Source of the DNA: a virus
Taxonomy: Duplodnaviria > Heunggongvirae > Uroviricota > Caudoviricetes
DNA length: 31,287 bases
Strand: one strand, 5' to 3'
Virus record (IMG/VR): IMGVR_UViG_2548876857_000005
Coordinates: 1 to 31,287 of that record
Of this stretch, positions 1 through 3,000 are shown piece by piece. Made by a program: the position numbers. Numbering within the stretch: the stretch's first letter is position 1; every line of letters begins with the position of its first letter.

Positions 1-3000
1 GTCATCGGGCATTATCTGAACATAAAACACTATCAATAAGTTGGAGTCATTACCCATTGCATTGTCAGAAATAGTTATCCATTAAAGGCTGGCTATTCCA
101 AACAGGATGTTGATTACAAAAATGTAATCAACATGTAAGGTTTATACTCTTCAATATGCGTATAATTTTCCTTATTTTGTTAACTTTAAATAACAAGCTA
201 TGCACGAGGTAAAGTCGGATAAGTTTATCTGGATGTAATATATATTATTTGTAGTGTTTATAACTTTATTTCATGATAACCAATAAAAGGAGTTTTTTAT
301 GAGGAACATAATGGCAGGTTTTTTAATATTCCTGTCTTCTGCTGCTTATGCTGATATCAATCTGTATGGTCCTGGTGGCCCGCATACAGCCTTGCTTGAT
401 GCAGCCAAACTTTATGCCGAAAAAACAGGTATTATAGTGAACGTTCATTACGGCCCACAGAACAAATGGAATGAAGATGCCAAAAAAAATGCAGATATCT
501 TGTTTGGCGCATCAGAACAATCTGCTCTGGCTATCATTCGGGACCATAAAGACAGCTTCAGTGAAAAAGATATTCAGCCTCTTTATCTGCGAAAAAGTAT
601 TTTACTGGTAAAGAAAGGTAATCCTAAAAATATCCGGAGTATTGACGACCTGACCAGACCCGGGATTGGCGTAATTGTTAATGATGGTGGTGGTACCAGT
701 AATACATCAGGCACTGGCGTCTGGGAAGATATTGCCGGACGTAAAGGGAATATAGAAACTGTCGCCGCAATCCGAAAAAATATTATTTTATATGCGCCCA
801 ATAGCGGAACTGCACGTAAGGCTCTTGAGAATCAGCCTGAAGCAGATGTCTGGATAACCTGGGCTGACTGGGCAGCCAGTAATCCAGAAATTGGTGATGT
901 CGTGGAAATAGCGCCAGACTACGTGATATGGCGTGATATGAACATTACAGTACGTCAGGATGCAAATGATGAAACCCGTCGATTTGCAGAATGGCTACAA
1001 ACCGATGAAGCGGCGCCTGCATTCAAAAAATATGGCTGGATCAGGAAAGGCACTTGACATCCTCCACGTCCTTCAGGACGTGGATTCTTTTTCCGGATGC
1101 CGCGCCAGCGGCATGTAGGGGCAGCTCACAAAACGGAAAAAATTGTACGCTAAGCCTCGCCAGGTGAACTGAATTCATTCCGATATGGGAATTCCCATAT
1201 CGGACGAAAACGGCTTGCTGTAACGGCAGAGTTAAGTAGAATTGCTGCGGGTGCTTGAGGCTATCTGCCTCGGGCATGAACACCAACGGCAGATAGATAA
1301 AAGCCCCACCCGACTATAAATCGAAGTGAGGCCCCTATATGCTCGTCACATATAGATTGCCTCTTACGGACCGAAAGGTCAAGGAGAAGCAGGCTATGAA
1401 GCAGCAAAAGGCGATGTTAATCGCCCTGATCGTCATCTGTTTAACCGTCATAGTGACGGCACTGGTAACGAGGAAAGACCTCTGCGAGGTACGAATCCGA
1501 ACCGGCCAGACGGAGGTCGCTGTCTTCACAGCTTACGAACCTGAGGAGTAAGAGACCAGGCGGGGGAGAAATCCCTCGCCACCTCTGATGTGTCAGGCAT
1601 CCTCAACGCACCCGCACTTAACCCGCTTCGGCGGGTTTTTGTTTTTATTTTCAACGCGTTTGAAGTTCCGGACGGCGCCGGAATAGAATCAAAAATACTT
1701 AAGTAGCGCGCAGGGAGAAGAGGGATGGACCCCGAACAGGGGAGTGCTATTTATCTGGAAGGATTCTGTTGATGAAAATCGAAGAATTACGTGAAATTTT
1801 TAGTGAAGATGGCCTCTATACTGTGCGCGTTGAGAATGGCGCTATTGTCAGCCACTGCCGTATTAAATGTTTACAGTCTCAACAAAGGAAGAGTGGAGCT
1901 GCGTTAATTCATTTTGTGGATGGGCTTGTGACGGATGGTTTTATTTTGCGTGCAAATGAATTTGTCACATCGTTGCCGTCTCTGAAAGACGCTGGGATTA
2001 AGGCTGGTTTTTCTGCTTTTGAAGATGAGTGAATTCATCTACAATTCAGCGCAGGGCTGAACCCCTGTTGAGTAACACTGTGCCACCGGAGAAAGCCGAT
2101 GGCGCAAAATTCCAGACTACACAATTCTGATAATTCAGCCGTCTTTGCCAGCAGGCACGGGCGGCGTTCTCATGCATTCAAATCTGACTGGTTCCGGCAC
2201 GACCCATGCACTGAAGAACAGGCCGAATGGCTGATTCAGAACTACCGCAGACGTGGGTATGAGTTTAGGAAAGCCCTCAGCCTCGATTATCGTCACTGGA
2301 TAATCTCCGTCAGGCTTCCTTACTCCGAACGCCCACCGCGTCCGTCCCGCACATTCCAGCAACGGATCTGGAGGTAACGTGCGGGTATTACTTCGACCTG
2401 TTCTGGTACCGGAACTCGGGCTGGTGGTCCTTAAGCCAGGTCGTGAATCCATGCAGGTATTTCACAATACCCGGGTACTGGTGGAGCCGGAACCGAAAAG
2501 CATGCGTAATCTGCCGTCCGGGGTCGTTCCTGCCGTTCGCCAGCCGCTGGTGGAAGACAAAACATTGCTGCCATTTTTCAGCGACGAACGAGTGATTCGT
2601 GCTGCTGGTGGTGCTGGTGCATTGTCTGACTGGCTGTTGCGCCATATTAAATCCTGCCAGTGGCCACACGGCGATTATCACCACAGCGAAACTGTCATTC
2701 ACCGTTATGGTACCGGCGCAATGGTGTTGTGCTGGCACTGCGACAACCAGCTACGGGACCAGACATCCGAATCACTCGAGCAACTTGCTCATCAAAACCT
2801 GTCAGCATGGATGATTGACGTCATCGGTCACGCAATAAGCGGTACGCAGGAGCGTGAATTATCTCTGGCTGAATTATCCTGGTGGGCGGTCTGCAATCAG
2901 GTGGCGGACGCGCTACCGGAGGCCGTATTACGTCGTTCTCTGGGGTTACGTGTGGAAAAAATCCGCTCCTTGTACCGCGAAAGCGACATCGTACCGGGAG

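Follow-up and report, generated by a model that had tools for sequence, protein, structure and literature searches.

The interval from 1100 to 1655 of the analysed window (the whole 31,287-nt stretch of viral DNA) very probably holds two unrelated things side by side, namely a hok/sok cassette and an orphan palindrome derived from a KilA-N gene (Table 1). Judged from sequence, 1215..1650 is a complete type I toxin-antitoxin cassette of the hok/sok type with the hokD allele, and the palindrome next to it is identified as an orphan copy of a 22-bp dyad that is embedded in KilA-N genes, rather than as a hok/sok component.

Table 1. Features at the hokD end of the window, with the basis on which each was placed.
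Feature	Position	Strand	Basis or detail
paa	299..1057	+	ORF; Pfam SBP_bac_11, 119.6 bits; RefSeq 'paa: AcfC family adhesin Paa', 99.9% identity
paa intrinsic terminator	1063..1092	+	9-bp stem (1063..1084, 6 GC pairs), 4-nt loop, T run
Orphan fragment of KilA-N/BstA-like gene (putative)	1166..1204	minus-strand orientation of that gene	palindrome plus ~13 nt of former 'ELIQ' coding flank
Perfect 26-bp palindrome	1179..1204		sequence, TCCGATATGGGAATTCCCATATCGGA
Conserved 22-bp core	1181..1202		within the 26-bp palindrome, CGATATGGGAATTCCCATATCG
Candidate hok promoter	1215..1242	+	inferred from sequence: -35 TTGCTG (1215..1220), 16-nt spacer, -10 TAGAAT (1237..1242)
hok mRNA leader (tac/ucb/sokT region)	1249..1398	+	Rfam RF01794 'sok', model positions 1-157 of 157
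Sok-like antisense unit (predicted)	1297..1382	-	-35 TTGACC (1382..1377), 17-nt spacer, weak -10 CAATCT (1359..1354)
mok-position reading frame	1339..1551	+	ATG 1339 after GAGG (1328..1331); in frame with hok
hokD toxin CDS (51 aa)	1396..1551	+	ORF; Pfam HOK_GEF; RefSeq
fbi-like 3' element (predicted)	1601..1613	+	pairs with mRNA 5' end 1249..1260 in the minimum-free-energy fold
hok intrinsic terminator	1620..1650	+	terminator scan; 1620..1637 plus T run

The hokD cassette and its setting

The preliminary description had set this hokD apart from the relB-relE-hokD operon of K-12 Qin, and this holds: neither relB nor relE lies 5' of hokD. Where the operon has these genes immediately upstream and co-transcribed, the window has paa, the solute-binding-protein ORF already noted there, followed by its own terminator. 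According to Pfam and RefSeq, the paa product is an AcfC-family adhesin, Paa, with the SBP_bac_11 periplasmic solute-binding fold. The combination of paa with a full hok/sok is already known, the paa-hokD arrangement being common to 570 E. coli genomes. When the leader was aligned to hok/sok and relBE loci, it matched RF01794 over the full model length with 103.9 bits (gathering score 59), and homology between K-12 and the window began only at 1382, which indicates that the whole hok leader has been lost in K-12.

The gene order hokD-rem-ydfU-rusA-Q is the same in Qin of K-12. The two loci have an identical HokD protein, an identical 3' UTR and terminator, and the downstream genes rem, ydfU and Q in common; K-12 Qin lacks the promoter, leader, mok start and sok (all 5' of window position 1382) and has relBE in place, whereas the window has the full cassette with paa as the upstream gene. 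By this comparison, relBE-hokD of K-12 is identified as a truncated derivative of the full cassette, a derived form in which the sequence 5' of the hok Shine-Dalgarno would have been replaced. A passage of PMC7232551 that cites Pedersen and Gerdes (1999) describes K-12 hok loci as inactivated by IS elements, point mutations or rearrangement. From about 1208-1232 onward, the cassette is conserved in many prophages with different upstream genes; here it is a cargo of the nin region (P to Q) in a PPompW-like lambdoid prophage. The hok/sok part is of little weight in itself, K-12 relBE-hokD apparently being a degenerate form and the complete cassette being present in STEC prophages.

The toxin scores 82.9 bits against Pfam HOK_GEF (PF01848; cut-off 22) and has the RefSeq accession of K-12 HokD, WP_000813254.1. 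Transcription of hok is predicted to start at about 1249, giving a 5' UTR of about 147 nt. The candidate promoter ends 7 nt short of where the Rfam model begins and is conserved across hokD loci with differing upstream contexts; a consensus scan was silent on it because its -35 matches at only three of six positions. The terminator described after hokD is present. The earlier proposal of an independently regulated hok locus is borne out as far as transcription goes, by a predicted promoter of its own, the full hok/sok-type leader and the non-K-12 arrangement, and the sok-like antisense RNA suggested at the same time has a predicted counterpart opposite the leader, with promoter elements and an RNA running from about 1347 to about 1297 whose fold (-22.7 kcal/mol, z -3.7) has a strong hairpin preceded by a 5' tail and followed by a U run.

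We placed this Sok-like unit by position from the layout of R1 Sok. A plasmid search retrieved only relatives of about 81% identity, without R1 hok/sok, so that the statements on P_sok rest on position and on the R1 layout. The -10 of the candidate P_sok is poor; compared with other hokD loci, the first T of TAACCT has been lost here through a 1-nt deletion. The ATG at the mok position opens a 70-aa N-terminally extended Hok ORF, which LC567818 annotates as 'gef: phage maintenance protein'; phage Rac has its corresponding mok in a different frame from hok. Because its mok-position ATG is in frame, unlike in R1 and Rac, the cassette may be differently regulated or partly decayed.

In the minimum-free-energy fold of 1249..1641, the 5' end is predicted to close on about 1601..1613 (-165.3 kcal/mol, z -7.4). 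A weak constitutive promoter would yield a hok mRNA of about 390 nt. In the steps predicted from the R1 paradigm, base pairing between its two ends would keep this mRNA locked; 3' trimming would render it translatable from the upstream mok-position start, unless the short Sok-like RNA from the opposite strand paired with the leader and so brought about decay. The cassette shares with the plasmid R1 hok/sok family (RF01794; PF01848) a toxin of about 50 aa, the conserved leader structure, a predicted 5'-3' fold-back, a mok-position start of the GAGG-ATG kind and an intrinsic terminator; opposite that start, an antisense hairpin RNA is predicted. It departs from R1 in being borne by a prophage, in having one frame for hok and the mok-position ORF, in its short sokT/terminator hairpin and in its poor P_sok -10.

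The weak P_sok -10 and the in-frame mok would also fit a decaying, non-functional remnant of the kind represented by the hok loci of K-12; in most PPompW alleles the P_hok -10 is weakened (TAGGAT), and several pseudogenes are found in the PPompW prophage. However, the window allele has the stronger P_hok -10 (TAGAAT), its RNA elements all score as those of a full family member with the fold-back intact, and the Hok ORF, likewise intact, encodes a protein identical to a toxic member of the family, so we consider decay rather unlikely. The chromosomal hok loci tested so far showed no post-segregational killing (bioRxiv 10.1101/2025.08.07.668861).

The palindrome beside the hok promoter

The perfect 26-bp palindrome that had been noticed in this region, TCCGATATGGGAATTCCCATATCGGA, is real. 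About 5e-4 such palindromes would be expected in the window by chance (31287 x 4^-13, arithmetic), and its 22-bp core was matched in 0 of 100 shuffles. The 26-bp form is the rarer allele; GGGC replaces GGAC in most prophages of the same type, leaving a palindrome of 24 bp. Its assignment to a hok leader of about 300 nt does not stand, the Rfam model starting at 1249 and the palindrome lying outside the predicted 5' UTR. Taken together, this start and the promoter put the palindrome at about -70 to -45, upstream of the promoter, and it ends 10 nt before the hok -35.

The palindrome adjoins the promoter, recurs upstream of hokD in several prophage lineages and has the perfect dyad symmetry typical of operators, all of which would suit an operator or structured leader element regulating hokD, as the preliminary description had it. 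This is nevertheless very improbable: the palindrome lies upstream of the predicted transcription start and hence outside the RNA, most copies elsewhere are in KilA-N genes or in contexts without hok, and no regulator gene linked to it was found. Moreover, among hokD loci that have this promoter flank, the palindrome is missing or damaged in about half, which speaks against any view of it as a hok/sok feature, and R1-type hok/sok is not known to contain such an element. Rfam gave nothing at 1179..1204; a nearby sub-threshold HgcC match of 21 bits and a reverse-strand sok match of 19 bits are noise. An intrinsic terminator was rejected, as the terminator scan was silent and a T run stands on neither side. 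The palindrome is a recurrent element and not a known, annotated one, an annotation having been found nowhere that we searched.

Over 33 nt, the orphan fragment is identical at 31 positions to the inside of a KilA-N gene at another E. coli locus (L007). Situated at the equivalent place in the nin region, some 500 bp 5' of a hok locus, this gene includes the flank and 24 of the 26 bases of the window palindrome. It is BstA-like: it belongs to PHROG 6287 (E 5.6e-89), and its C-terminal domain is recognised by the PADLOC BstA model. The window copy does not sit inside a KilA-N domain; it is intergenic, and only about 13 nt of KilA-N-like flank are left. The same palindrome-flank unit is also found upstream of hokD in prophages without paa (L002, L008), and about 610-850 E. 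coli genomes have the orphan region, compared with 137 that have the L007-type gene. In the window, in L001 and in the complete PPompW prophage, a tblastn search for the KilA-N/BstA gene found only the palindrome itself. A longer KilA-N remnant was considered and rejected, the translated similarity (E 0.01 to 5e-4) being driven by the palindrome and DNA similarity not extending beyond about 36 nt.

The palindrome may have been left at the junction when cargo genes were exchanged at this hot spot, first a bstA-like gene, then a small membrane ORF and then paa. We lean towards regarding it as a relic without a role in hok control. The orphan core is 100% conserved between orphan lineages while the flanks differ by about 17-20%, and this contrast hints at selection on the orphans rather than at a pure relic. 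Furthermore, copies of the dyad stand at intergenic sites and in the linkers of other, unrelated proteins (AAA_24), so that a KilA-N relic may not explain every orphan. A further orphan dyad was seen between cro-like and cII-like genes in other phages.

The dyad within KilA-N genes

The window core CGATATGGGAATTCCCATATCG is the commonest form of the dyad CG-N4-GGGAATTCCC-N4-CG. The exact 22-mer was found in at least 119 viral contigs, and the core in the genomes of 63 species, where about 0.03 would be expected by chance (arithmetic); the phyla with the 22-mer are Cyanobacteria, Bacteroidota, Bacillota, Chloroflexota, Proteobacteria, Spirochaetes and Saccharibacteria. Copies in KilA-N ORFs make up at least 29 of the 63; they share one position of the domain and are read as DMGIPIS. 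Genes of the Saprospiraceae type use another frame for this 22-mer, giving RYGNSHI. KilA-N genes without the BstA C-terminal domain also contain the dyad. It is not an insertion in these genes, since members without it have equal length at this place.

Among family members chosen by C-terminal motifs only, the synonymous sites of the dyad are frozen, whereas control codons use all four synonyms. Variants with an altered peptide (DTGIPVS, DIGIPIS, ETGIPVS, VTGIPVT, DAGIPAS and ETGYPVS) are perfectly symmetric. The two arms covary: both sides change in 9 of 12 pairs, double-change cells number 28 against 6.5 +/- 2.2 in shuffles (a value reached in 0 of 500), and 90% of cells are paired, a share that drops to 27-49% once partners are slid. 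Between phyla, there is almost no variation in the GGGAATTCCC centre or in the outer CG. These patterns identify the dyad in KilA-N genes as a target of selection at the DNA level, its symmetry being kept by compensatory changes that alter the amino acids. The most economical reading is that the dyad would be the recognition site of a dimeric KilA-N protein encoded around it.

Compensatory changes that preserve arm complementarity would equally serve a nucleic-acid hairpin (an RNA stem-loop, DNA cruciform or single-stranded-DNA signal) in place of a duplex protein-binding site. An 11-bp stem with a 4-nt loop is indeed predicted (-11.8 kcal/mol as DNA), and the central pair 19-22 is the least symmetric, as in a loop. 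For a hairpin, any complementary sequence should do, yet the centre and the outer CG hardly vary, and one variant alters the 'loop' symmetrically, from AATT to ATAT. In addition, the window site lies between the paa terminator and the hok start and so is probably untranscribed; with no U run following, it is not a terminator, and Rfam has no match. We therefore hold a hairpin to be improbable and retain the duplex site for a KilA-N protein as the preferred reading. Because the dyad is conserved across phyla, compensatorily symmetric and located in the gene of its likeliest binder, it makes a concrete 22-bp candidate, open to direct testing, for the DNA specificity of the KilA-N domain.

An all-against-all comparison of neighbours at 29 loci found no conserved partner gene common to phyla beside the palindrome-bearing KilA-N genes. 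The neighbours were lineage-specific only, namely XRE-type repressors in Nostocales, IS1595-type transposases, and a serine recombinase at two Saprospiraceae loci. The literature was searched for KilA-N palindromes, for the sequence and for follow-ups on BstA (full text), and no description of the dyad was found; a match to GGGAATTCCC was a 16S rRNA sequence and not the dyad. Overall, our results suggest that the KilA-N dyad is a recurrent element that the literature searched does not describe.

BstA-aba and other known systems

In BstA systems, a cognate DNA-based self-immunity element inside the bstA locus acts in cis or in multicopy (PMC8585504). Owen et al. leave open how BstA recognises phage DNA and how this element, aba, suppresses BstA, and the aba of BstA-Ec and of BstA-Kp are unmapped (PMC8585504). 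A tentative possibility is that the orphan palindrome is an aba-equivalent or binding site that acts as a decoy against KilA-N-type BstA from other prophages. Carried without bstA on a replicating prophage, the dyad would titrate or neutralise foreign BstA and so allow escape from abortive infection; if this were true, the phage could replicate in cells expressing a matching BstA.

The DNA-based nature of BstA self-immunity and the unmapped aba elements leave room for such a decoy, and the palindrome-bearing family is BstA-like. The DNA-level selection on the dyad fits as well, since arm covariation could encode specificity, as do the orphan core staying perfect while the flanks diverge, the larger number of E. 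coli genomes with the orphan region than with the L007-type gene, and the absence of a bstA-like gene from the window and from the complete PPompW prophage. On the other side, the only mapped aba, that of BTP1, is another sequence, whose CCCGCC direct repeats lie 5' in the gene; the N-terminal domain of BstA-BTP1 also differs, and a search of BTP1 bstA did not find the dyad. The dyad is also present where the BstA C-terminal domain is missing, and some hok-linked orphans are absent or have a 1-nt deletion. The broader proposal, in which the dyad is the cognate recognition site of canonical KilA-N domains and the orphans are 'immunity without defence' decoys, is one we regard as speculative and somewhat unlikely. 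If the orphans did act as decoys, they would constitute a minimal, protein-free anti-defence device, invisible to gene-based screens.

Like BstA-aba (Owen et al. 2021, PMC8585504), the dyad would be a short DNA-acting element inside a KilA-N(-like) abortive-infection gene, the cognate element varies along with the protein, and the palindrome-bearing L007 gene is in the BstA PHROG with a BstA C-terminal domain. Unlike it, the window has no bstA gene in the same element. The palindrome was also compared with the published aba itself and rejected as a copy of it, the latter being a 63-bp sequence that spans the bstA start, with terminal direct repeats and no palindrome, unrelated in sequence and different in position. 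In contrast to aba, the dyad goes with the canonical KilA-N domain, whether or not a BstA C-terminal domain is present.

A palindromic site within the coding sequence of its own binder is represented by parS inside parB/spo0J, a site conserved across phyla, and by the Roi site inside HK022 roi. The KilA-N dyad resembles both, in that a palindrome, here a candidate site, lies in the coding sequence of the likely binder. HK022 Roi, which binds inside its own gene in the nin region, was considered and rejected as the source of the palindrome: roi, unlike the KilA-N dyad genes, is an Rha/ANT-type gene in which the palindrome is unmatched within 2 mismatches. Rickettsia palindromic elements, REP and HIP1 are likewise short palindromes that stand in frame in coding sequence and also in intergenic DNA; unlike them, the KilA-N dyad is not an insertion, is low-copy per genome and belongs to one protein domain.

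The hok/sok locus of the window

As the preliminary description had proposed, hokD has no adjacent relBE operon in the window, and the solute-binding-protein ORF upstream with its own terminator, the palindrome and the terminator after hokD were each found where they had been placed.

Features of the paa-hokD region in the window
Feature	Position	Strand	Basis
paa, ORF upstream of hokD	299..1057	+	solute-binding-protein fold (SBP_bac_11); annotated adhesin Paa at 99.9% identity
Intrinsic terminator of paa, clean	1063..1084	+	terminator scan
Perfect 26-bp palindrome TCCGATATGGGAATTCCCATATCGGA	1179..1204		
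TTGCTG	1215..1220	+	16 nt upstream of TAGAAT
TAGAAT	1237..1242	+	7 bases upstream of RF01794 model start
hok/sok model RF01794 (Rfam)	1249..1398	+	full-length match, 103.9 bits (gathering score 59)
GAGG at the mok position	1328..1331	+	
70-aa extended Hok ORF	1339..1551	+	ATG at 1339, in frame with hok
hokD, 51-aa ORF	1396..1551	+	ORF listing; Pfam Hok/Gef family, 82.9 bits
Terminator 3' of hokD	1620..1637	+	terminator scan

Because the RF01794 match lies on the hok strand, the region it describes is the hok mRNA leader. The TTGCTG/TAGAAT pair is conserved among hokD loci whose upstream genes are unrelated, and probably represents P_hok, with transcription starting at about 1249. In the predicted RNA fold of 1249..1641 (-165.3 kcal/mol, z -7.4), the first 12 bases pair with 1601..1613, just 5' of the terminator; this predicted pairing corresponds to the tac-fbi closure known for hok mRNAs (PMC9841398). 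The extended Hok ORF starting at the mok position is labelled 'gef, phage maintenance protein' in one STEC phage record; the mok-position ATG is in frame with hok in the window and in another compared locus (L002), whereas the mok of phage Rac is classical and out of frame. On the opposite strand, TTGACC and CAATCT (a poor candidate -10) are separated by a 17-nt spacer, and the predicted RNA, with a free 5' tail, a strong hairpin and a U run, would be a Sok-like antisense RNA. The proposal of an independent hok locus, possibly with a sok-like antisense RNA, is thus strengthened by the full leader, the candidate promoter and the predicted antisense hairpin, but the palindrome is not part of that leader.

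The hok 3' UTR and terminator (1560..1641, + strand) gave a sub-threshold isrK match (24.9 bits vs 50), which probably reflects a common terminator shape and nothing else. Downstream of the Q antiterminator gene, the STnc100 sRNA family (Rfam) matched at 5404..5570 (+ strand; 101.6 bits, gathering score 47). No tRNA genes were found in the window, in which respect the PPompW_132418 record differs.

A 761-nt query around the locus matched in full in 570 of 5,426 complete E. coli genomes, all annotated with paa and hokD. In K-12 strains, the match begins only at query base 383 (window 1382, 14 nt before the hok ATG), and K-12 therefore lacks the promoter, leader, mok start and sok. At this point relBE is joined upstream in K-12, whereas the window has a complete leader; hokD, rem, a small ORF, ydfU, and then rusA and/or Q follow in both, and the two HokD proteins share one RefSeq protein accession. 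Judged from the sequences, the window cassette appears complete and the K-12 version truncated. This agrees with a passage in PMC7232551 (citing Pedersen and Gerdes 1999), which states that K-12 hok loci were inactivated by IS elements, point mutations or rearrangement. Prophage-borne hok is well documented (bioRxiv 10.1101/2025.08.07.668861). The hokD arrangement is real but ordinary, already known and annotated, and it is the K-12 operon that is the exception.

The palindrome is far beyond chance, with about 5e-4 such 26-bp palindromes expected in 31 kb and its 22-bp core found in 0 of 100 shuffles. It had been assigned to the hokD leader, but it ends 10 nt before the -35 and 45 nt upstream of the predicted transcription start. 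Conserved hok homology in other prophages starts between 1208 and 1232. When viral contigs were scanned for the hok promoter flank, whatever its upstream sequence, about half of the hokD loci had no palindrome and a different small ORF abutting the flank; about 10 carried a copy lacking 1 nt, and in one the palindrome was partly deleted. Since it is missing or damaged in many of these loci, the palindrome is not a hok/sok component, and the earlier suggestion that it serves as a hok operator is very improbable. The usual allele of PPompW-type prophages is 24 bp (GGGC), extended to 26 bp by GGAC in the window. Over 1100..1660, the window and the common PPompW allele (L416) have three differences, including sites 1237..1242 and 1203: TAGAAT vs TAGGAT in the P_hok -10, GGCTTG vs GGTTTG, and the one substitution that lengthens the palindrome.

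A dyad within KilA-N genes

Of the 96 nt around the palindrome, a 33-nt stretch also matches inside a 'KilA-N domain-containing protein' gene of an E. coli locus (L007). This gene, which holds TCCGATATGGGAATTCCCATATCG and a homologous flank, is on the opposite strand, occupies the same place in the nin region and precedes another hok locus by about 500 bp. At 1933..3354 of L007, the BstA-like KilA-N gene adjoins the hok/sok locus, whose hok ORF has a divergent 3' end that shortens it to 41 aa.

An exact scan found the 22-bp core in at least 119 viral contigs. It was also present in 63 species genomes with GC contents of 29 to 70%, compared with about 0.03 matches expected in 596 Gb; the taxa comprise Cyanobacteria, Bacteroidota, Bacillota, Chloroflexota, Alpha-, Beta- and Gammaproteobacteria, Spirochaetes and Saccharibacteria. 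The core lies inside a KilA-N ORF, at one domain position (...LKSTxxFLxELSxDMGIPISELVQxxKGG...), in at least 29 of these 63 genomes. Saprospiraceae-type KilA-N genes hold the identical 22-mer at the identical position, one base out of frame (...LLEERYGNSHIA...). Other copies are intergenic or in linkers of unrelated proteins, such as an AAA_24 protein.

To avoid selecting on the palindrome itself, KilA-N/BstA-like relatives (L336-L496) were picked from viral and metagenome contigs by C-terminal motifs alone (QGTWVHP and similar). The codons of the peptide DMGIPIS were essentially fixed (GAT, GGA in 10/12, ATT in 11/12, CCC, ATA), while the conserved GTW motif of these genes, taken as a control, shows all four synonymous codons at its G and T. 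Many relatives carry other perfect palindromes with an altered peptide, namely CGATACGGGAATTCCCGTATCG (DTGIPVS), CGATATCGGAATTCCGATATCG (DIGIPIS), CGAAACGGGAATTCCCGTTTCG (ETGIPVS), CGTTACGGGAATTCCCGTAACG (VTGIPVT), CGATGCGGGAATTCCCGCATCG (DAGIPAS) and CGAAACGGGATATCCCGTTTCG (ETGYPVS). Among 40 distinct sequences, both sides had changed in 9 of 12 symmetric pairs; double-change cells numbered 28 vs 6.5 +/- 2.2 in shuffles (reached in 0/500), and 90% of cells were paired vs 27-49% with the partners slid. Some relatives lack the dyad and are equally long at that point, so the dyad is not an insertion. Its form is CG-N4-GGGAATTCCC-N4-CG, with a nearly invariant centre and outer CG and covarying arms, and its place within KilA-N domain genes is fixed across at least seven phyla. 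We conclude from these comparisons that the dyad is a DNA element selected for symmetry.

Several loci showed further features. In six Saprospiraceae, Aureispira and Haliscomenobacter loci (L129, L134, L146, L166, L170, L188), the 22-mer is read RYGNSHI, not DMGIPIS, and the following segment is 4 aa longer; L134 and L188 have a gene for a serine recombinase immediately next to the KilA-N gene. In L130 (a Bacillota MAG), L153, L157, L158 and L191, the exact dyad is read DMGIPIS in apparent linkers of non-KilA-N proteins, one copy directly following an AAA_24 domain. A few loci have extra GGGAATTCCC dyads close by. In Calothrix (L132, 2005..4160), two of these (2939, 3071) lie upstream of a KilA-N gene with an internal dyad; this gene comes after a parA-like gene and a ribbon-helix-helix (RHH) gene, and the C-terminal 40 aa of the RHH protein are duplicated at the KilA-N protein end. 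Phages of unrelated hosts (L010/L030/L084; L061; L142; L178) carry second dyads with other arms (ATAAAAACGGGAATTCCCGTTTTTAT, GTGAAACGGGAATTCCCGTTTCAC, GATACGGGAATTCCCGCATCGG) 20-335 bp from the main one, a layout that resembles an operator set. In L017 (6848..6928), direct repeats of about 28 nt (AACCAATGCGCGCA...ATTTTA) lie on both sides of the dyad, upstream of a 754-aa ORF.

Origin and role of the window copy

Next to the window palindrome remain about 13 nt of the 'ELIQ' coding flank that enterobacterial KilA-N genes typically have. No KilA-N or BstA gene was found in the window, in 6 kb of upstream sequence from an identical prophage, or in a complete PPompW prophage. The window palindrome is an orphan of the cross-phylum KilA-N-gene dyad, unrelated to hok/sok. 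In prophages without paa, the unit of palindrome and flank comes after the stop codon of a 34-aa membrane ORF, and the final two codons of this ORF are still present in the window. The simplest history would be a series of cargo exchanges in a hot spot, from a bstA-like gene beside hok (as in L007) to the small ORF and then paa, with the dyad left over at a junction. Beside the palindrome, GAATTCATTC (1170..1179) differs at one base from GAATTAATTC, a 10-bp palindrome (codons ELIQ) that comes after the dyad in KilA-N genes of enterobacteria.

We slightly favor the view that the window dyad is now an inert relic, because other hokD loci lack the copy or carry a damaged one, and because few genomes (137 of 5,426) have an L007-type gene. 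We consider it possible but rather unlikely that the dyad still serves KilA-N/BstA proteins as a decoy or binding site; in favor of this, orphan lineages share a perfect core while their flanks diverge by about 17-20%, orphans recur at unrelated positions (e.g. between cro-like and cII-like genes), and a short DNA element that neutralises BstA is a precedent (PMC8585504). In an enterobacterial phage (L024) and Siccibacter (L189), the orphan dyad between these two genes has the same 13-nt 'ELIQ' flank and lies within an inverted repeat of larger size (GACGGTAATCGT ... ACGATTTACCGTC).

Relation to BstA

The dyad-bearing family (250-290 aa, about 55% identical across phyla) gives a full-length match (E 5.6e-89) to PHROG 6287, 'BstA abortive infection system'. 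Its C-terminal domain is recognised by the PADLOC BstA model, and its N-terminal domain, a canonical KilA-N, weakly resembles the APSES DNA-binding domain of Mbp1. We found no description of the KilA-N-gene dyad in the literature, and Owen et al. (PMC8585504) do not mention a palindrome. KilA-N genes that lack the BstA C-terminal domain also contain the dyad, indicating that it goes with the KilA-N domain; as a candidate DNA target of KilA-N/BstA, it is open to testing. Owen et al. (PMC8585504) showed that BstA blocks the replication of phage DNA, and the anti-BstA element aba, mapped for BTP1 and not for two other BstA proteins, is in BTP1 a 63-bp stretch at the gene start with CCCGCC direct repeats (PMC8585504). 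BstA-BTP1 differs from the dyad-bearing family in its N-terminal domain, and it lacks a dyad of the KilA-N type.
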